Below the pieces are notes generated by a model. The model searched no databases and was not told the origin of the DNA. It saw only the letters and a list, made by a program, of their open reading frames with translations. Of a DNA stretch of 11,687 nt, positions 739 through 11,687 are shown in pieces. Origin of the DNA: Pseudomonadales bacterium (GTDB lineage Bacteria; Pseudomonadota; Gammaproteobacteria; Pseudomonadales; JAUIET01); assembly GCA_037969395.1 (NCBI GenBank), contig JBBKXJ010000094.1, positions 1-11,687 of the forward strand, written 5' to 3'. Every line of letters begins with the position of its first letter. The first letter of the stretch is position 1. The translations under genes and the position numbers were made by a program.

Positions 739-776
739 TATTACATGTAATAAATGTTTACATATTACATGTAATA
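739..776. promoter_or_regulatory. Twin identical 14-bp perfect palindromes (TATTACATGTAATA x2, centres 24 bp apart); candidate operator/promoter of the cluster
   Basis: 739-752 and 763-776 are both TATTACATGTAATA, and each is perfectly self-complementary. The spacer is aatgtttaca. The first copy overlaps a possible -10 (TATATT 737-742), with a weak -35-like ATCACA at 714-719. The second copy ends 16 bp before the ATG at 792. Confidence 0.45.
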
Positions 777-791
777 AGATATATTTTTACC

Positions 792-2972: not shown

Positions 2973-4853
2973 ATGGCTGATTTAACGGTATTAATGCCCA
3001 TTGTCACCGGGGTCGCAATATTCTTTGTGATTCTGCTAGGCCTGGCTGGCTTGTTCAAAGCCTTTTACTACAAGGTTGAACAAGGCACTGCGCTAATCGT
3101 CAACGATATGAGCGCCACGCCGAAAGTACACTTCACCGGCGCGCTGGTATACCCGATTATCTACAAAAAAGAGCTGATGAAAATTTCGCTTATCACGCTT
3201 GAGGTAGACCGGCGGGGAAAAGACGGGTTGATCTGCCTCGACAATATGCGCGCCGATATTACCGTGGCATTCTACTTGCGAGTCAACGAAACACCGGAGG
3301 ATGTGTTGAAAGTCGCCAAGTCCATTGGTGCCACAAGGGCCTCCGACAAGGAAGCCGTGCATGACCTGTTTGCCGCCAAGTTTTCCGAGGCGCTAAAAAC
3401 GGTGGGCAAGCTTATTGAATTCGTGCAGTTGTTCGAAAATCGTCAGCAATTCCGCGAGAAGATAATTCAAGTGATTGGTGAAGACCTTAACGGCTATGTG
3501 CTGGAAGATGTCGCCATAGATTACCTGGAGCAAACGCCTAAAGCCGCGCTCGATTCCAGCAATATTCTCGATGCTGAAGGTATCAAGAAAATTACCGAAT
3601 TGACCGCCGAACAGAACGTGCGCACCAATATTCTGGAGCGTGACGAACAGCTGGCGATCAAAAAGAAAGACGTAGAAACCGTGGAAGCCATGCTGGAATT
3701 GGAGCGCCAACAAGCGGACGCCGAAGCACGGCAAGAGCGGGAAGTGCTCACCATTCGGGCACGCGAGGAAGCAGAAACCAAGAAAGTTCAGGAAGAGGAA
3801 CGCTTGAAAGCGGATGCGGCAACCATTCGTGTTGACCAGGACCTTATGGTGCAGACCGAAAATCAGCAGCGCGAGATCGAAGTAGCAGGGCAGAACCGTG
3901 AGCGCGCAGTCGCCGTTGAGCAGGAGAAAGTCACGCGGGCGCGCGACCTGGAAATTGTGTCACGCGAACGCGAAGTGCAGGTGGAGCGTGTGCTCGCCGA
4001 GAAAGCCGTTGAGGTTGAGAAGAAAGAAATCGCCAATGTGATTCGCGAGCGTGTGGCGGTAGACAAAACCGTTGCTATCGAAGAAGAGCGCATCAACGAA
4101 GTGCGCGAAGTGTCGGATGCGGACCGCAAGAAACAAGTACAGGTGTTGGCCGCAGAAGCCAATGCGGAAGAGCTGAAAGTCAAGGAGGTGACTGCAGCGG
4201 CAGCAGAAGAAGCGGCGGCGAAGCACAAAGCCACCGAAATCACCACGCTTGCCGAAGCTAATCTGGAAGCGGCGGATAAGGATGCCAAGGCGCAGATCAG
4301 GCTGGCCGACGCCATGCAGGCAGAGAAAGCCGCACCTGGATTAGCCGACGCCCAGATTCAACTCGCCAAAGCCGATTCCTTGCAGAAGGAAGGCTTGGCT
4401 GAAGCGCATATCATTACTGCCAAAGGTGAGGCTGAGGGTAGCGCCGCGAAACAAATCGGCATGGCCGGTGCTGAAGTGACGCGCGAGCAGTTCAAGGCTG
4501 AAGCCGACGGCTTGGTCGACAAATTCGAAGCAATGAATTCAATGAGCAGTCAAGCGCGCGAACACGAAGAATTCCGAATGACGCTGGAGACTGCCTTCAA
4601 GGAAGCGATTGCCACCATCGAAGCCGGTAAGGAAATCGCCAAGGAAAATGCGGAAGTGCTCGCCACCGCGCTCGAGAAAGCCAAGATCGATATCGTTGGC
4701 GGCGAAGACCACTTCTTCGACAACTTCGCCAAATCCTTGTCTATCGGCAAGGCGGTCGATGGTCTGGCCAACAAGAGTGAAACCATCAGCAGACTGCTGG
4801 ATAAAGTGATGACCAAAGACGCGGGCGAGGATAAGGCTGCAAATCAGCCCTAA
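2973..4853 (+). CDS. yqiK: Flotillin-family SPFH/band-7 protein (YqiK-like): N-terminal TM anchor, SPFH domain, long Glu/Ala-rich coiled coil
   Basis: The 626-aa protein has an N-terminal TM helix (LMPIVTGVAIFFVILLGLAGLF). The SPFH region (GTALIVNDMSATPKVHFTGALVYPIIYKKELMKISLITLEVD...ICLDNMRADITVAFYLRVNE...) is followed by an EA-repeat-like coiled coil (ERQQADAEARQEREVL..., AAEANAEELKVKEVTAAAAEEAAAKHKATEI...). SD AAGGAG at 2961-2966 sits 6 nt before the ATG. Confidence 0.9.
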   Translation: MADLTVLMPIVTGVAIFFVILLGLAGLFKAFYYKVEQGTALIVNDMSATPKVHFTGALVYPIIYKKELMKISLITLEVDRRGKDGLICLDNMRADITVAFYLRVNETPEDVLKVAKSIGATRASDKEAVHDLFAAKFSEALKTVGKLIEFVQLFENRQQFREKIIQVIGEDLNGYVLEDVAIDYLEQTPKAALDSSNILDAEGIKKITELTAEQNVRTNILERDEQLAIKKKDVETVEAMLELERQQADAEARQEREVLTIRAREEAETKKVQEEERLKADAATIRVDQDLMVQTENQQREIEVAGQNRERAVAVEQEKVTRARDLEIVSREREVQVERVLAEKAVEVEKKEIANVIRERVAVDKTVAIEEERINEVREVSDADRKKQVQVLAAEANAEELKVKEVTAAAAEEAAAKHKATEITTLAEANLEAADKDAKAQIRLADAMQAEKAAPGLADAQIQLAKADSLQKEGLAEAHIITAKGEAEGSAAKQIGMAGAEVTREQFKAEADGLVDKFEAMNSMSSQAREHEEFRMTLETAFKEAIATIEAGKEIAKENAEVLATALEKAKIDIVGGEDHFFDNFAKSLSIGKAVDGLANKSETISRLLDKVMTKDAGEDKAANQP

Positions 4854-4867
4854 AACAGCGCGCTCAA

Positions 4868-4901
4868 CGCTGGCAGGCGGTTGATCCTGTCAGCGCTTTT
4901 T
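4868..4901 (+). terminator. Candidate intrinsic terminator/attenuator between the flotillin gene and the giant ATPase gene
   Basis: CGCTGGCAGG (4868-4877) pairs with CCTGTCAGCG (4886-4895) as a 10-bp GC-rich stem with one G-U wobble in RNA and an 8-nt loop. It is followed by C then TTTTT (4897-4901). It lies 15 nt after the flotillin stop and 26 nt before ATG 4927. The U-run is short (5), so termination is probably partial. Confidence 0.5.
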
Positions 4902-4926: not shown

Positions 4927-7900
4927 ATGGCTGAACAGCCTGGCAAAGACGCGCTTGTTGAAGCGGCCGTCGCGGAGGGTGGCGCGTACGACGTCATTAG
5001 AAAGCGCCTTGAAGAGCACGGTCGCCAGCTCGAGGAAAAGACACAACAAGTGAATGCAGCGCGTATTGCCGAAATTGGCAGTACCGATATGCAAACCGTT
5101 GCGCGTGTGAGAGTCAGAACGGAACACAACAGCGTGGCGCGCGATATCGTTCAGGTGGGCGATTATCTGCTGTTCGGTTACAACGTATTTATTGGTTTAA
5201 AAAAAGAAGTCAAAGTGGAAGATGTTTTTTCACTGTTTGCGTTAACCGAGAGCAACGGTGAATATACTATCGAAGCTGCGCCCGCCGAAGTAGATTTTTT
5301 GCAACAGCAGCGCTTCAGTTCGGATTTTCGCGAGCTGTATCAATACTACAAGCATACCCGCTTGATCCAGCTGACGGTTAATAACGGCAAGTTATTGGCC
5401 GGTTTTCAGATTGGCGAAAAACTGGAAGATATTCGTGTGTTTCGCTGGTCGGTATCTCCTGACGGTAAACAGGTTGAATATATTGATAACCGCGGCGAAC
5501 GCGACATTCAATTGCCGCCTGCCTTTGACTTCGAATGGCAAGCGGCAGGCAGGGAAGACTTTGTCAATGGGCGTCACCCGCATATCAATATTTTGGACCG
5601 TCTGTTTGTTGATACGCTGGGTGGCACTTTATCCATAAAAGTCGAGGATAACACCGAGTCCGGCCAGGGCATTTATAGTGAGCCGGTGGAAGAGCAAAAC
5701 CAGTCGCTGGATGATGTTGACGTGCAGTATGCGCTGGTTGGCGACCTTGTTCTGTTGCGCGTATTGCCGTATCGCGAGCAGCAGTGGCGGCATTTTGTGT
5801 TCAATACCAATAGTGAGCAGATTAATCGCATCGACGCGATTGGTGAATCGTGCGTTCAGCTGCCGGAAGATCACGGCATCATATTTCCTGGCGGCTATTA
5901 CTTACAAAATGGCGAATACAAGTCCTTCGATGAAGACATAGTCGGGCTGAAGTTCAAGCGCATGCTTAAATCGCCTAACGGCGAGGATGTGCTGTATATT
6001 TTTTATGAACCGGCAGATGGCGTGGTCGCGCTGCTGCCGTATAACCTGATTAATCGGAGCCTGCAAAACCCTATTATCAGTCATGGTTACGCGCTGGCGG
6101 AAGACGGCAGGCTGGTGGTATTCACCTCGGAAGAAGAGCCAACCCGGGTACATCCGATGCAGGTATGGCAAACGCCGTATACCTCGCAAGACTTTGCCGA
6201 TCGCATGCCGGTACAGCAAACTTTCTTCGGCCGCATCGGCAATTCGGCCATGGTGCGCGGTGTCTCCGATCTGTTTAGTATCGCTCGCCAGATACGCGAG
6301 CAAAATGTCTCCGTCGCACACTATGAGAAACTGGGTAAAGCGGTGGCGCGCGCCTTCGACGCCTACTACTGGTTAGACAGCCCGGAGCTTGATGATATCG
6401 ACGCAACGCTTAAAGAGGTTGCGCAAACATCAGAACTGGTCATCGACGAGTTTGAAAAAGTCGATGCGATTCGGCGTCAGTCCGCCACGGCGATGGCCGA
6501 GGCAGAGCAGGCACAACAAGCGATTATTACCGGTATAGGCACGGCCACCTGGGAAAAAGTTGCGGATTTCGTCGAGTCTCTTGATCGCGTTCGCCACCAG
6601 CGTGGCCATCTGGCAACCATCAGCGAGTACCGCTATATCGATACCAACCGTATCGCGGAGCTGGACGCGGAGCTGGTTGCAAGCGCGGATGAGCTGGGTA
6701 CAAAAACCGTCGAATTCCTGGCCGACGAGCAATCGCTGGCGCCTTATTTGCAGCAGATCGCCGAGCTGGACCAGCAAATCGAGGCGGCAAACTCGGTTGC
6801 ATTGTTAAAGCCGTTGATTGAAACCATGGATGCGATTGCCCGCGGCCTGGATTTACTGTCGGAGTTAATGGCGACGCTTAAAGTCGATGACGCCACGGTA
6901 AGAACCCGTATCATTGACGCCATCTCTGCGGTTTACGCCAAGCTGAATCAAACCCGGGCCAGTGCGAAACATCGGCAGGCAAATCTTGGCTCGGCCGAAG
7001 CGGTTGCGCAATTCTCCGCCCAGTTCAAACTGTTTTCACAAAGTATTAACAACGCGCTCGGCTTGGCCACTGATCCGGACCGCTGCGAGGAGCAGCTGTC
7101 GCGACTGTTGGTGCAGCTGGAAGAACTCGAAAGCCAGTTTGGCGAGCACGAACAATTCCTCGCCGATATCATTGAGAAGCGTGAGGAAATCTATGACACC
7201 TTCGAGTCGCACAAACAAACGCTGATTGAGCAGCAACAGCGCAAGGTGCAAGTGCTGGTCGATGCAGCCCAGCGGATGTTAGGCAGCATTGAAAAGCGCA
7301 GCAATAAATTTACCGCAGCGGATGATCTGAATACCTATTTCGCCGCTGATGCGTTGGTGCTGAAGATCAAGGAGCTAACCCAGCAACTCGGGCAACTCGG
7401 CGGCAATGTGCAGGCCGATGATATTGGCTCGCGCTTCAAAATGATCAAGGACCAGGCCTTGCGCTCGCTGCGCGACAAAAGCGATATCTTTATCGAGGGC
7501 GGCAAGGTCATCAAGCTCGGTCCCAGGCATCGCTTCAGTGTCAACACCGATGAACTCGATCTATCCATCGTGCCGTATCAGGAGGGGCTGGCCGTGCATT
7601 TGGCCGGCACGCAATACTTCGAAGCCATTAACCATCCAGACCTGCTGGCGCTAAAAGACTACTGGAACCTGTCGCTGGAGTCGGAGAGCGACGTCGTCTA
7701 CCGCGCCGAATACCTGGCCTTTCAATTTATTCAAGCGCTGCGTGCCAACGATGCCGGTGTGGATCAGGCAGACGTTGAAAACGCCCTGCAGTCCGAGCAG
7801 CAAATGTATGACCTGGTTCGCGCCTTCGCTACCCCCCGCTACAAAGAGGGTTACGAAAAAGGTATTCACGACTACGACGCAGCCAAATTACTGATGGCGT

Positions 7901-10185
7901 TATTACCCTTGCTGAACACCGCCGGGTTGCTGACCTATCTACCTCGGCAGCGCGCCCTTGCCCAGGTATTCTGGGTGGCGTTCAGTAGTGCTACAGAGAA
8001 CAAGGCCAGGGTGGAAAGCTGGCCGCAACGCGCGGCATCGGCTTATGCTATGCGCGAACTATTGCACAGCTCAGCCAGCATTTCCCTGGTGGAGAACGAA
8101 GTTGTACAGGCGATAACGCAATTCAACGAACAACATGCTTTGGTGAGTAGTGAGCTGGATTTGCAGCAAGCGGCTGTTTATCTGGTTGGCGAACTGCAGC
8201 AAGGCACAGCGGAATTTGTCACCACCCAATACGCCACACAGTTGCTCGATATGTATCGACTCGCCCTGGATGAGCACACGATAGCAGAGCATCAGCGATC
8301 ACTGCGCAACTTACAGGGCAACTATGTGCAGCAGTGGCGACTCAGCGAGGCTTGGTTAGAAGCGCTGTTGAATAAAGAGGAGAAAGAAGGCAAAAACCTA
8401 GAGCTGGTGAATGTCTTAAGGCATTACGTTCCCGAGGCCGTTGCTGTGCTGAATCTCGGCGAGGCAATAGTGCGTCGCCACGCAGACATAAAACTACACC
8501 TTACGGTGGACAATCTAATGGGCGCGCATGCGCGCATTCAGAACCGCAGCATTTTGCTTGCCGTGGATACTTTCATGCAGCGCCTGCGCCAGCATGTGCA
8601 AATTGTTGTGCCTGCTTACCAGCACTACCTGCGGCTCAAGCATGAGATTGCCAACCACGAACGCGAGGCCTTGCGGCTTGAGTCGTTCAAAGCGCAACCA
8701 TTAAGCTCTTTCGTTAGAAACAAGCTTATCGATCAGGCGTATCTGCCGATCATCGGCGATAATCTCGCCAAGCAAATCGGCACGGTTGGCGACAGCAAGC
8801 GTACCGATCTCATGGGCTTGCTGATGATGATCTCGCCACCCGGATACGGCAAGACAACACTAATGGAATACGTGGCGAACCGACTTGGTCTGATCTTTAT
8901 GAAGATCAACTGTCCGGCGCTGGGCCACAACGTGCTGTCGCTGGACCCCGAGCAGGCACCCAATGCGACCGCGCGGCAGGAACTGCAGAAGCTCAACCTT
9001 GGGTTGGAGATGGGCAATAACGTGATGTTGTATCTGGATGATATACAGCATACCAATGCCGAATTTCTGCAAAAGTTTATCTCCCTGTGCGACGCCACCC
9101 GGCGTATCGAAGGGGTGTGGCGCGACAAGGCAAAAACCTACGATATGCGCGGCCGGCGGTTTTGCGTTGTTATGGCCGGTAACCCGTACACCGAATCGGG
9201 CGAAGCGTTCAAGGTGCCGGATATGCTGGCCAACCGTGCGGACATTTATAACCTTGGCGACATCCTCGGCGGCATGGATGAGCAGTTCGCGCTTAGCTAT
9301 ATAGAAAACAGCTTGACCTCGAACGCCGTATTGGCGCCGCTGGCGGTACGCGAAATGGGTGATGTGTACAAGCTGGTGGATATGGCCAAGGGTTTAAATG
9401 TACCCACAACCGACCTCAGCCACTCCTACAGCAGCGCCGAAATCAATGAGATTACCGGTGTGTTGAAAAAACTGTTTGTGATTCAGGACGTAGTGCTAAA
9501 AATCAATCAGCAATATATTGCGTCTGCCGCCCAGGACGATAAGTACCGGGTAGAGCCAGCATTTTTGCTGCAAGGTAGCTACCGTAATATGAATAAAATG
9601 GCGGAGAAAGTCTCTGCCGTGATGAACGATGCAGAGCTGGCGCAATTGATAGACGACCACTACCAGGGCGAAGCTCAGTTGCTGACCTCGGGTGCCGAAG
9701 GTAATTTGCTCAAGCTGGCCGAACTCAGAGACGAACTGAGCGAGCAGCAGGCAGCGCGTTGGCAGCAGATAAAAACTGATTTTCTGCGCAATAAGGCTAT
9801 GGGTGGTGATTCTGATGACATTGGCGGCAAGATCAACGCGCAGCTTGCCGATCTCGTGCAAAGCGTTCAGGCTCTGAATGTTAATCGAGACGGCGCGGCA
9901 GGGGAGGCGGCAAACCAATCGAACGCGGCACTAGCTACCAGTATCGAAAAGCTGCTGTCAGGCTTGCAGGAAGCACGACCGAAAATCGAAGTCATCAATC
10001 AACCGGTGCCGGAAATGGCCGCCGTGCTTTCCGTGTTGAACGAAACCATCGACAACACGTTGTTTCCTATTTTGCGCGCGATGGATAAAAAGATCGACAT
10101 AGACCTGCGCACGCAGGAGAAAATGCATTCTATATCCGAGCAGTTGCGAGTCTTGCAAAGTAAAATAGATCCCGGCGATATTTAG
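4927..10185 (+). CDS. Giant 1752-aa multidomain protein with one MoxR/AAA_5-type AAA+ ATPase module (aa ~1290-1480) set between a beta-rich N-terminal region, a long helical region and a helical C-terminal tail; likely the type often auto-annotated as 'DNA repair ATPase'
   Basis: The ORF is uninterrupted from 4900 (TTG) to the TAG at 10183-10185. ATG 4927 is the preferred start, with GGGAG at 4915-4919 at 7-nt spacing. Walker A is ISPPGYGKTT (nt 8842-8859). Walker B is MLYLDDIQH (DD at 9037-9042). Sensor-1 is VVMAGNPYTE (9175-9186). The arginine-finger-like motif DMLANRADIY matches the MoxR/RavA/McrB/dynein-type AAA_5 signature (xxQNP ... LLDRF). No VWA/MIDAS motif, nuclease motif or second AAA module is seen. 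The N-terminal ~460 aa are beta-rich (repeated G..L..G/DG-type turns). About 800 aa are predicted helical or coiled-coil. Confidence 0.88.
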   Translation: MAEQPGKDALVEAAVAEGGAYDVIRKRLEEHGRQLEEKTQQVNAARIAEIGSTDMQTVARVRVRTEHNSVARDIVQVGDYLLFGYNVFIGLKKEVKVEDVFSLFALTESNGEYTIEAAPAEVDFLQQQRFSSDFRELYQYYKHTRLIQLTVNNGKLLAGFQIGEKLEDIRVFRWSVSPDGKQVEYIDNRGERDIQLPPAFDFEWQAAGREDFVNGRHPHINILDRLFVDTLGGTLSIKVEDNTESGQGIYSEPVEEQNQSLDDVDVQYALVGDLVLLRVLPYREQQWRHFVFNTNSEQINRIDAIGESCVQLPEDHGIIFPGGYYLQNGEYKSFDEDIVGLKFKRMLKSPNGEDVLYIFYEPADGVVALLPYNLINRSLQNPIISHGYALAEDGRLVVFTSEEEPTRVHPMQVWQTPYTSQDFADRMPVQQTFFGRIGNSAMVRGVSDLFSIARQIREQNVSVAHYEKLGKAVARAFDAYYWLDSPELDDIDATLKEVAQTSELVIDEFEKVDAIRRQSATAMAEAEQAQQAIITGIGTATWEKVADFVESLDRVRHQRGHLATISEYRYIDTNRIAELDAELVASADELGTKTVEFLADEQSLAPYLQQIAELDQQIEAANSVALLKPLIETMDAIARGLDLLSELMATLKVDDATVRTRIIDAISAVYAKLNQTRASAKHRQANLGSAEAVAQFSAQFKLFSQSINNALGLATDPDRCEEQLSRLLVQLEELESQFGEHEQFLADIIEKREEIYDTFESHKQTLIEQQQRKVQVLVDAAQRMLGSIEKRSNKFTAADDLNTYFAADALVLKIKELTQQLGQLGGNVQADDIGSRFKMIKDQALRSLRDKSDIFIEGGKVIKLGPRHRFSVNTDELDLSIVPYQEGLAVHLAGTQYFEAINHPDLLALKDYWNLSLESESDVVYRAEYLAFQFIQALRANDAGVDQADVENALQSEQQMYDLVRAFATPRYKEGYEKGIHDYDAAKLLMALLPLLNTAGLLTYLPRQRALAQVFWVAFSSATENKARVESWPQRAASAYAMRELLHSSASISLVENEVVQAITQFNEQHALVSSELDLQQAAVYLVGELQQGTAEFVTTQYATQLLDMYRLALDEHTIAEHQRSLRNLQGNYVQQWRLSEAWLEALLNKEEKEGKNLELVNVLRHYVPEAVAVLNLGEAIVRRHADIKLHLTVDNLMGAHARIQNRSILLAVDTFMQRLRQHVQIVVPAYQHYLRLKHEIANHEREALRLESFKAQPLSSFVRNKLIDQAYLPIIGDNLAKQIGTVGDSKRTDLMGLLMMISPPGYGKTTLMEYVANRLGLIFMKINCPALGHNVLSLDPEQAPNATARQELQKLNLGLEMGNNVMLYLDDIQHTNAEFLQKFISLCDATRRIEGVWRDKAKTYDMRGRRFCVVMAGNPYTESGEAFKVPDMLANRADIYNLGDILGGMDEQFALSYIENSLTSNAVLAPLAVREMGDVYKLVDMAKGLNVPTTDLSHSYSSAEINEITGVLKKLFVIQDVVLKINQQYIASAAQDDKYRVEPAFLLQGSYRNMNKMAEKVSAVMNDAELAQLIDDHYQGEAQLLTSGAEGNLLKLAELRDELSEQQAARWQQIKTDFLRNKAMGGDSDDIGGKINAQLADLVQSVQALNVNRDGAAGEAANQSNAALATSIEKLLSGLQEARPKIEVINQPVPEMAAVLSVLNETIDNTLFPILRAMDKKIDIDLRTQEKMHSISEQLRVLQSKIDPGDI

Positions 10186-10233
10186 TTCTATTGTGTTAAC
10201 TCGACCAGCGGCACAGAAAGGGGCAGAGAGGGG

Positions 10234-11301
10234 CTACGCTAGTGAATACCATGTACCACGCCCAGCACCATGCCGTGCAATAAACCCATTTTCCTGCAGA
10301 GTTTTCATGTGGTCTTTGATCGTGTTTCGACTTTTTCCTGTTGCTGCTACAGCGTCGCTAATTGTGACCCTGCTGTGTTCACGGGCAATTTCCAGAATTT
10401 GAACTGACAGCTGCGGCAAATCGCCGAAAATCAGGCGTTCACGTTCTATTTTTACTGCAAGTTTTTCTTTTTGCGTGGTCAGTGACAGGAGGAAGTAAGT
10501 TACCCACGGTTGCCAATCAGGAGAATCGGTTCGAATAGTAGCTTGTGTTCGGCGTAGTGCCAGATAGTAGGATTCTTTGCCTTGCTCAATCACGCTTTCC
10601 AATGAGCTATAGGGCACAAAGACATAACCGGCTTTCAGCAGTAGCAGCGTGGTCAATATGCGCGATAGCCTTCCATTGCCGTCCTGAAACGGATGGATCT
10701 CTAAAAAGACAACAGTGAAAATAGCGGTAATGAGCAGCGGGTGCGGGTGCTTTTCAGAGTGGGCTTTATTTGTCCATGCGATCAGTTCGTCCATTAAGCG
10801 CGGCGTATCAAAAGGCGTTGCGGTTTCAAAAATCACGCCGATGCTTTTTCCGTCTGGTGAAAAAGCCTCAACGCTATTGGATAGTGTCTTGTATTGCCCG
10901 CGATGTCGTGAATCTTTGTCAGAATGTTGCAATAGCTCAGCATGGAGTTGTTTGATGAAATTTTTCGTCAGTGGTATGTTCTGCCAGTGCTCGATCACCG
11001 TTTCCATCGCGGCGGCATAACCAGCCACTTCCTGCTCGTCCCGACTTTCAAAAGATTGAATTTCCAGGTTTGATAACAGTTTTTCAATGTCGCGATTTGA
11101 GAGCTTTGCGCCCTCTATTCGAGTGGAAGAACCAATGCTTTCAATTGTTGCAACATGCCGCAAGTTGGACAGACGCTCCGGCGCAATTCGCCCAATAGCC
11201 TGCCAAGCGCCCTTGAATTGATCCAGTTCGGAGATGAGCGACAATGTATGATGAGTGATTGCAAGCGTTTCAATATTCACTTCTGCATTAGCATATGACA
11301 T
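10234..11301 (-). CDS. Fic-family (AMPylator-type) protein, class II with an N-terminal inhibitory helix motif, and a C-terminal winged-HTH-like tail
   Basis: The catalytic Fic motif HPFQDGNGRLSR is encoded at 10660-10695 (revcomp reads CAT CCG TTT CAG GAC GGC AAT GGA AGG CTA TCG CGC). The (S/T)xxxE(G/N) inhibitory motif STRIEG is encoded at 11110-11127. ATG at 11301 is the preferred start. The track uses an upstream in-frame TTG at 11313. The gene is convergent with the giant ATPase gene, leaving a 48-bp gap. Confidence 0.88.
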   Translation of the reverse strand: MSYANAEVNIETLAITHHTLSLISELDQFKGAWQAIGRIAPERLSNLRHVATIESIGSSTRIEGAKLSNRDIEKLLSNLEIQSFESRDEQEVAGYAAAMETVIEHWQNIPLTKNFIKQLHAELLQHSDKDSRHRGQYKTLSNSVEAFSPDGKSIGVIFETATPFDTPRLMDELIAWTNKAHSEKHPHPLLITAIFTVVFLEIHPFQDGNGRLSRILTTLLLLKAGYVFVPYSSLESVIEQGKESYYLALRRTQATIRTDSPDWQPWVTYFLLSLTTQKEKLAVKIERERLIFGDLPQLSVQILEIAREHSRVTISDAVAATGKSRNTIKDHMKTLQENGFIARHGAGRGTWYSLA

Positions 11302-11487
11302 GCTGATATCCAATTAGCCATCCATTCTCATCCGTTTAATGATGGCATGACAATACCCGATTGTCCACCCGTTTCCATCCAATTAAACCGAGTCGAAAAA
11401 CGCAGATCGGAACAGCTTTCAATGGGCATGATCTGTTTATTCACTTTGAAACGAAAACCATGGCCTGTCTCTGGCTGTGTTGTTGCA

Positions 11488-11493
11488 TATAAT
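11488..11493 (+). promoter_or_regulatory. Perfect TATAAT -10 hexamer, candidate sigma70 promoter for the downstream + strand oxidoreductase gene
   Basis: ttgcaTATAATgg sits about 26-41 nt upstream of the candidate ATG starts at 11519/11534. A TG lies 2 bp upstream (near-extended -10). The -35 is weak (CTGTCT at 17-bp spacing). Confidence 0.3.
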
Positions 11494-11518
11494 GGCCTTC
11501 ACCTTAATACGTCTTGCC

Positions 11519-11687
11519 ATGCGGAATCTTGTCATGCCCATTTCGCCACCAACCGCAACAAACAAACCCCTAAAACCCAGCACCGTACGCGTAGGCCGTC
11601 GCTACCGCCCAACCCGCGTAGACGACCATTACGACGCCATCGTCATCGGCTCCGGCATTGGCGGCATGACCAGCGCGGCGTGCCTGG
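11519..11687 (+). CDS. Partial (N-terminal) FAD/NAD(P)-binding oxidoreductase (phytoene-desaturase / amine-oxidase-like Rossmann N-terminus); continues beyond the window
   Basis: The frame is open to the window end and reads (MRNLV)MPISPPTATNKPLKPSTVRVGRRYRPTRVDDHYDAIVIGSGIGGMTSAACL. DAIVIGSGIGGMTSAA is the canonical GxGxxG dinucleotide-binding motif. The start is ambiguous between ATG 11519 and ATG 11534, which are in frame with each other. Confidence 0.65.
   Translation, partial: MRNLVMPISPPTATNKPLKPSTVRVGRRYRPTRVDDHYDAIVIGSGIGGMTSAACL

Follow-up and report, generated by a model that had tools for sequence, protein, structure and literature searches.

A giant BacE-type AAA+ ATPase annotated as a DNA repair protein closes a conserved flotillin/NfeD operon and is plausibly a membrane-stress remodeller

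A stretch of 11,687 nucleotides (nt) from a Pseudomonadales bacterium (contig JBBKXJ010000094.1 of assembly GCA_037969395.1), referred to here as the window, encodes a giant BacE-type AAA+ ATPase of 1752 amino acids (aa) at positions 4927-10185 (features lie on the plus strand unless marked otherwise). Its open reading frame (ORF) is real, with an ATG start and the sequence GGGAG just 5' of the start, and is the last of five co-directional genes with intergenic gaps of 10, 73, 67 and 73 nt. The first gene of this operon, bacA (792-1415), encodes a DUF2170/CesT-Tir-like chaperone-regulator (Pfam DUF2170, E 2e-52), which also matches the NCBIfam equivalog model for the Pseudomonas aeruginosa biofilm regulator BacA with 312 bits against a cutoff of 300. 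It is followed by a gene for a PspA/IM30 protein of the ESCRT-III superfamily (1426-2127; bacB equivalent; Pfam PspA_IM30, E 5e-43), a gene for a 234-aa membrane protein of the YqiJ/short-NfeD type with three to four transmembrane segments and a soluble C-terminal domain (2201-2905; bacC equivalent), and a gene for a 626-aa SPFH/flotillin-like protein with an N-terminal transmembrane segment (aa 1-35), a long charged helical body and a conserved EEFR...IVGG...F block in its C-terminal part (2973-4853; bacD/PaFlo3 equivalent). The NfeD-like protein matches Pfam YqiJ_N weakly (E 0.031, model positions 7-114 of 116), and the flotillin-like protein has no Pfam match of its own; among its orthologues (54-81% identical), three of 17 match Band_7/SPFH (best E 2.7e-10) and one matches Flot weakly, and the Streptomyces copy is annotated as a 'flotillin family protein'. 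Single-sequence and profile searches of the two unassigned neighbour proteins against the PDB returned nothing useful. This operon context, which an earlier sequence-only reading of the giant gene had missed, is the most informative fact about it, since the neighbouring BacA, PspA, NfeD-like and flotillin-like genes point to a membrane role of the ATPase.

The giant protein is soluble and acidic, with no transmembrane segment by hydropathy, a net charge of about -77 and an acidic composition in every segment. The sequence-only reading had described one AAA+ module at about 75% of its length, flanked by unassigned sequence that was beta-rich at the N-terminus and consisted of some 800 aa of helix or coiled coil in the middle. 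The position of the module holds. The flanks are not unassigned: Pfam DUF3686 (PF12458) covers aa 35-481 (nt 5029-6369; E 2.2e-198, model positions 2-448 of 448), DUF7902 (PF25472) covers aa 603-685 (nt 6733-6981; E 2e-28), and the architecture as a whole is already in the literature, as discussed below. Two overlapping AlphaFold2 models, each computed on 63-sequence alignments, span aa 1-900 and aa 840-1752 with mean predicted local distance difference test scores (pLDDT) of 81.6 and 76.9, respectively. In the first model, an N-terminal helix (aa 7-50) precedes about 27 beta-strands (aa 56-415), and Foldseek matched the model to propellers, WD40 and others (DCAF1, Ski8, trilobed protease, prolyl oligopeptidase, LGI1 and PON1), at a probability of about 1 and E-values of 1e-5 to 1e-4, with template-modelling scores of just 0.25-0.41. 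The modelled N-terminal domain is consistent with a divergent, roughly seven-bladed beta-propeller; because of these low scores we call it propeller-like and divergent rather than a canonical propeller. The beta-rich, propeller-like character foreseen for this region is borne out.

The middle of the protein is indeed helical; instead of one 800-aa coiled coil, it resolves into three pieces. A helical-bundle stalk (aa 421-848; nt 6187-7470) with helices of up to 58 residues contains DUF7902 and is followed by a small conserved beta unit (aa ~858-900; nt 7498-7626), recognized by invariant columns in a GGxVIKLG-xH-F-VN block and by strands in both models. The third piece, a compact and mostly helical domain of about 345 residues directly before the ATPase (aa ~906-1250; nt 7642-8676; model bounds ~879-1249), is predicted with very high confidence (pLDDT >90) and matched neither a Pfam family nor a PDB entry in the Pfam scan and fold search. 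Whether queried as a sequence or as a profile, the full protein matched PDB sequences at the level of the P-loop only, and no NCBIfam model matches it. The propeller-like, stalk and pre-ATPase regions gave no match to a well-characterised family in the PDB profile and Foldseek searches. Beyond the AAA+ alpha/beta core (aa ~1295-1445; nt 8809-9261) lie a lid and a post-ATPase helical region delimited by conservation (aa ~1446-1625; nt 9262-9801) and a poorly conserved C-terminal helical tail of low pLDDT (aa ~1626-1752; nt 9802-10182). Measured as identity to the query, conservation is highest in the ATPase core (0.6-0.7), next highest in the propeller (~0.5) and lowest in the tail, where it falls to ~0.09 past aa 1650.

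The protein contains a single P-loop, at aa 1306, and a single, strictly conserved ATPase site. The motifs quoted in the sequence-only reading were recovered where it had placed them, in an ORF of the length it had given: Walker A, PPGYGKTT (aa 1304-1311; nt 8836-8859); Walker B, LYLDD (aa 1368-1372; LYLDDIQH at nt 9028-9051); sensor 1, AGNP (aa 1417-1420; AGNPYTE at nt 9175-9195); and PDMLANRADIY (aa 1431-1441), of which PDMLANRAD (nt 9217-9243) carries the candidate arginine finger R1437. An invariant QGSYRNM in the lid region (nt 9571-9591) may provide the sensor-2 arginine, judging from motif resemblance. In the second model the core runs from strand 2 (aa 1323-1328) through helix 2, the Walker B strand (aa 1366-1371) and helix 3 to a predicted hairpin (aa 1393-1406; strands aa 1393-1398 and 1401-1406, pLDDT ~72-84), strand 4 and sensor 1. 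Across 80 related loci (L001-L080), which were fetched for synteny and motif counts, GYGKTT, the IQH after the Walker B aspartates, YTE, PDMLANRAD, R1392-R1393 and R1408 show no substitution at all, the only change in the Walker B strand is an exchange among L, V and I ahead of an invariant DD, and sensor 1 reads AGNP or SGNP. The motifs are likewise near-invariant in an alignment of 69 full-length proteins (the window protein and 68 representatives) that extends down to 31% overall identity. This invariance implies strong purifying selection on the ATPase site, which is not degenerate in any part of the family examined. In the P-loop SPPGYGKTT (aa 1303-1311; nt 8833-8859), a serine that is invariant in the family replaces the first Gly/Ala of the [AG]xxxxGK[ST] pattern.

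The giant ATPase belongs to a large family. A search of a 5.8-billion-protein collection returned at least 4,400 homologue clusters at 90% identity, and the best 120 of these are all 1739-1882 aa long and share the same Pfam architecture. Searched alone, DUF3686 is found in 695 representatives out of 1.84 billion clusters formed at 50% identity; in complete proteins it is always N-terminal, within a total length of 1500-2036 aa, and shorter matches look truncated by contig ends. In the fetched loci the product is 1648-1896 aa long in 78 of 80, the other two being a gene cut by a contig end (1558 aa) and one that was not recovered. At least 583 loci turned up when one genome per species was scanned, spread over Gamma-, Beta- and Zetaproteobacteria and Longimicrobium, to which a tblastn search of plasmid records adds Streptomyces, Nonomuraea, Deinococcus, Hymenobacter and Vibrio; plasmid-borne copies are rare (13 of 72,556 records), mostly on megaplasmids or chromids. 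Members include P. aeruginosa, Stenotrophomonas, Proteus, Xenorhabdus, Vibrio and Streptomyces, and at least five phyla are represented.

Synteny across these phyla is obligate. The flotillin-like gene is present in 76 of the 80 loci, that is in all 76 that are informative, as the other four have less than 400 nt of sequence ahead of the giant gene. For the NfeD-like gene the count is 71, again every locus with enough upstream DNA, the nine exceptions being truncated contigs. Where 8 kb or more of upstream sequence is available (68 loci), a BacA-PspA dyad accompanies them in 48, and the remaining 20 have an abbreviated form. Existing annotations show the gene order again in three further phyla: Hymenobacter has the order Tir chaperone, PspA, DUF1449, hypothetical protein and 'DNA repair ATPase', and Streptomyces and Deinococcus have a small protein, a flotillin-like protein and the ATPase. 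The window protein displays each of the traits that mark the family, namely an N-terminal DUF3686, DUF7902, a length of about 1.6-1.9 thousand aa, a single AAA+ module with the family motifs, and NfeD-like and flotillin-like genes upstream. It is an ordinary orthologue within a known, widespread and experimentally uncharacterised family, with nothing new to this window, and the interest lies in the family rather than in this instance.

An operon of CesT/Tir, PspA, YqiJ/YuaF, Band-7/flotillin and a 'beta-propeller + coiled-coil + AAA+ ATPase' protein has been described computationally, together with a more widespread abbreviated operon that lacks the dyad and comprises flotillin, YqiJ and the ATPase (Ravi et al., 2024; PMC11237479). 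Architecture and operon are identical to those of the window, and the abbreviated form corresponds to that of the 20 loci above; the published account is purely computational and does not address AAA+ clade, structure or mechanism. In P. aeruginosa PA14, the operon is known as the 'biofilm-associated cluster' bacABCDEF (PA14_16140-16200), whose six genes form one transcript; a bacA mutant has 6- to 13-fold more BacB to BacF, and PA14_16190 received the name bacE without functional analysis (Wallart et al., 2024; PMC10948618). PA14_16160 has been called a short NfeD, and PA14_16180 is the SPFH protein PaFlo3. The order of BacA, PspA-like BacB, short-NfeD BacC, SPFH protein BacD/PaFlo3 and giant ATPase is that of the window, which in contrast to P. 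aeruginosa lacks the PLD gene bacF and carries a convergent gene for a Fic and winged helix-turn-helix protein instead. The window gene is most simply read as the orthologue of bacE (PA14_16190/PA3728), because of the shared gene order, the BacA equivalog match and the locus L024 of P. paraeruginosa, which has the same gene order and a giant gene 55% identical to that of the window. A literature search found no paper that mentions DUF3686 and none that studies PA3728 itself. The P. aeruginosa operon has already been linked to biofilm, virulence and phage response.

On balance, the BacE-type giant AAA+ ATPase is probably an ATP-driven remodeller in a conserved flotillin/NfeD (and often PspA) membrane-stress module. 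Such a module would consist of the YqiJ/short-NfeD membrane protein, the SPFH/flotillin-like scaffold and the giant ATPase as its energy-consuming component, preceded in about 70% of loci, the window included, by BacA (DUF2170) and PspA/IM30. The role of energy-consuming component is proposed because the ATPase has no transmembrane segment, in contrast to its two upstream partners, and has an invariable place after these two membrane proteins, often also after PspA. Recurrent downstream genes in relatives are likewise membrane-directed and support a membrane role: a rhomboid protease (~185 aa; Pfam E 4e-18) and a PLD/HKD hydrolase (~229 aa; Pfam E 1e-29) lie directly downstream in 18 loci each and frequently overlap the ATPase stop codon. 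AAA+ proteins generally form rings, and the giant ATPase may do so as well. Its propeller and helical stalk would then dock it at the cytoplasmic face of the inner membrane on flotillin/NfeD, and on PspA where present, and ATP hydrolysis could assemble, disassemble or recycle the scaffolds, or pull clients out of them, during membrane damage. In other systems, flotillin/NfeD-type membrane proteins form SPFH-NfeD cages. The likeness to Vps4 acting on ESCRT-III, or to FtsH inside the HflK/C cage, would be functional, with homology limited to the AAA+ fold. Like FtsH with HflK/C, the giant protein is an AAA+ ATPase paired with an SPFH-family scaffold at the inner membrane, here by gene linkage only; unlike FtsH, it has neither a protease domain nor a transmembrane segment, and its scaffold is a single-transmembrane protein of the flotillin type with a cytoplasmic body.

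We further hypothesize, as a doubtful yet conceivable extension, that the BacE-type ATPase is a bacterial functional counterpart of Vps4, a motor that its propeller and stalk would recruit, that takes apart and recycles PspA polymers and flotillin/NfeD cages at the damaged inner membrane and evolved independently from a non-classical AAA+ lineage. The two systems share an AAA+ ATPase encoded beside an ESCRT-III-superfamily protein, which is PspA in the present case. In contrast to Vps4, however, the giant ATPase lacks an RPGRFD region, an aromatic pore loop and an MIT domain, and about 30% of loci have no PspA. According to a recent review, a Vps4-like ATPase 'appears absent in bacteria', and the turnover of bacterial PspA/ESCRT-III and flotillin assemblies in its absence is an acknowledged open question, for which this family is a natural candidate.

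Several observations weigh against a remodeller acting on these scaffolds. No aromatic pore-loop motif is seen on reading aa 1329-1346, between strand 2 and helix 2, and a threading or unfolding mechanism is thus not evident. Residues 1420-1450 of the ATPase core are invariant in sequence yet modelled with pLDDT below 50. Since about 30% of loci lack the BacA-PspA dyad, PspA cannot be a universal substrate, and deletion of paFlo3 in P. aeruginosa causes only a mild biofilm phenotype. The equation with bacE was drawn through the gene order of L024 and the BacA equivalog rather than a direct comparison with PA14, and ring formation, docking and substrate are inferred on top of what the data show, namely anatomy, conservation and gene linkage.

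The sequence-only reading had placed the ATPase in the MoxR/AAA_5 clade without a VWA/MIDAS partner. The missing partner was borne out: Pfam scans found no VWA domain in the giant protein or in any window gene, and the sole DxSxS string of the giant protein (aa 1496) falls within the lid region, outside any VWA fold. The clade placement itself is plausible and tentative. Pfam AAA_5 scores 27-30 bits on the ATPase region against a cutoff of 22 (model positions 2-125 of 139); as Pfam AAA (PF00004) is likewise above its cutoff, at 28 bits, the AAA_5 match does not discriminate between clades. The longer AAA_5 coverage and the hairpin before sensor 1, known from the model only, favour MoxR/AAA_5, and the spacing after sensor 1 (NP-x5-...-P-[DE]-x-L-x-x-R) resembles what we take to be the MoxR consensus. 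In a profile search of the core against the PDB, however, Rix7, NVL and p97 came out best (E 2.7e-7 to 2e-5, over the P-loop half only), followed by midasin at 4e-5, and the model for MoxR proper, AAA_3, was touched in per-member Pfam scans by five of 16 family members, all weakly. Comparisons with hhalign did not decide the matter, single-sequence templates lacking the necessary power (19.5% probability over 82 columns for Escherichia coli RavA, 89.6% over 35 columns for FtsH). Residues 1329-1346 (CPALGHNVLSLDPEQAPN), considered for a MoxR-type helix-2 insert, form an invariant loop without a regular hairpin in the AlphaFold2 model. The double-arginine second region of homology of the RPGRFD type is absent on reading the sequence, PDMLANRAD having the single arginine R1437, so that the giant ATPase would appear to fall outside the classical AAA clade (Vps4, p97, FtsH). 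With MoxR/AAA_5 proteins (RavA, CbbQ and NorQ, and more distantly midasin and dynein) it shares the AAA+ core, the AAA_5 score above cutoff and the modelled hairpin; it differs from them in lacking a VWA/MIDAS partner, in its roughly fivefold larger size, which includes 1290 aa of N-terminal domains, in P-loop surroundings that align better with classical AAA, and in the absence of an evident helix-2 insert.

Two alternatives would keep the ATPase at the membrane or among its downstream neighbours. It could be a MoxR-type maturation chaperone that has lost its VWA partner and activates or loads another protein, such as the rhomboid or PLD protein encoded downstream in relatives, which would fit the AAA_5 match, the modelled hairpin and the two sets of 18 loci with a directly adjoining, often overlapping, rhomboid or PLD gene. 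We consider this unlikely, as no VWA/MIDAS protein occurs in the window or among the recurrent downstream gene clusters of relatives, rhomboid and PLD genes are absent from the window and most loci whereas flotillin and NfeD are universal, and the clade assignment is itself uncertain. Equally improbable in our view, and argued from analogy, is a membrane-protein quality-control system in which damaged membrane proteins, corralled by a flotillin cage, would be pulled out by an AAA+ ring and then cleaved or degraded. Cdc48 acting with Derlin/rhomboid proteins and the SPFH proteins Erlin1/2 in endoplasmic-reticulum-associated degradation, and FtsH with HflK/C, are analogues of such an extractor, the latter a precedent for the pairing, and the co-occurrence of SPFH, AAA+ and rhomboid genes and the resemblance of the P-loop half to Rix7, NVL and p97 are in its favour; no protease domain was found in the giant protein by Pfam, however, the sequence offers no evident aromatic pore loop, and rhomboid genes are found in just about a quarter of loci.

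A role in anti-phage or abortive-infection defence triggered by membrane perturbation is very unlikely. PA3728-PA3732 are up in all phage-infected samples, the downstream region varies between strains, and the window carries a SoFic-type gene (PADLOC, E 2e-51) 3' of the giant gene; PA3728-PA3732 are also induced in an arginine-auxotroph suppressor. Yet the sole PADLOC match of the giant protein is to the P-loop of IetA (E 6e-4), the four upstream partners have no meaningful PADLOC match, PspA showing only weak, coiled-coil-type matches to LmuB and JetC, and the module is chromosomal, syntenic across phyla and rare on plasmids, with a Fic gene adjacent in one of 80 related loci. Least probable of all is the function under which homologues are commonly filed. 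As the sequence-only reading had anticipated, 'DNA repair ATPase' is a common source name among them, next to 'AAA family ATPase' and 'MoxR-like ATPase', and its doubts about the label were justified. The label appears to stem only from the description line of DUF3686 in Pfam ('ATPase involved in DNA repair'), and nothing beyond this line and the names propagated from it speaks for an SMC/Rad50-like DNA repair protein. The single P-loop at aa 1306 sits in an AAA+ topology rather than an ABC head; Pfam, NCBIfam and PDB searches gave no SMC, Rad50, nuclease or DNA-binding match, and kinase families were equally without a match in Pfam and NCBIfam; helices of at most 58 residues form short bundles with no long antiparallel arm and hinge; the composition is strongly acidic along the whole length of the protein; the conserved neighbours are all membrane or membrane-stress proteins; and the literature search on DUF3686 came back empty. 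The topology, with one P-loop and helices in short bundles, led us to reject both the SMC-like coiled coil and the dynein-like lever that had been proposed for the middle region, the lever having been speculation. The database label is almost certainly wrong, and since the family is systematically mislabelled with it, its correction is useful in itself.

The operon has features that suggest regulation at two points. A 16-nt palindrome, ATATTACATGTAATAA, occurs in two exact copies (738-753 and 762-777), 24 nt apart and directly upstream of bacA, and the pair overlaps the best sigma70-like promoter of the window (757-785; TTTACA-17-TATATT). The palindromes are probably an operator pair, a twin site for a dimeric repressor. 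A sigma54 element has been proposed for the P. aeruginosa bac operon; in the window, by contrast, a promoter search found no sigma54 -24/-12 site beyond chance upstream of bacA. Further upstream, at 642-721, the promoter region is preceded by a tandem pair of 40-nt direct repeats that are 83% identical. Between the flotillin-like and giant genes, a hairpin with a 10-bp stem (4868-4895; free energy -16.5 kcal/mol, followed by CTTTTTG) is the strongest terminator-like structure of the window and lies inside the operon; of 70 relatives, 23 have a similar hairpin at this junction. As a possible attenuator, it could hold the level of the ATPase below that of the scaffold. At the left edge, an ORF on the minus strand (1-360; at least 120 aa) runs off the window, divergent from the operon; its Gly-rich, hydrophobic product is probably a membrane protein.

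Downstream, the protein with Fic and winged helix-turn-helix domains is encoded at 10234-11313 on the minus strand, convergent on the giant gene, at the site where relatives carry rhomboid or PLD genes. Between position 1 and the stop codon of the giant gene, the close relative L086 (GCA_003704775.1, RCMY010000202.1) shares 96.6% identity with the window, and right after that codon, past 10185, the similarity breaks off (window 10186-11687; L086 from 13260 onward). The two carry different Fic-family genes in opposite orientations, which indicates a variable island at the 3' end of the operon. At the right edge, at ~11590-11687, an ORF begins with a GSGIGG dinucleotide-binding motif, and in L086 a FAD-dependent oxidoreductase (FAD_binding_2/Amino_oxidase) is encoded two genes downstream of the giant gene. 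Other downstream genes in relatives include one for a zinc-ribbon protein of ~180 aa, in nine loci, and, in Comamonas, an ORF of ~1150 aa whose product was judged MscK/MscS-like by eye from its residues.

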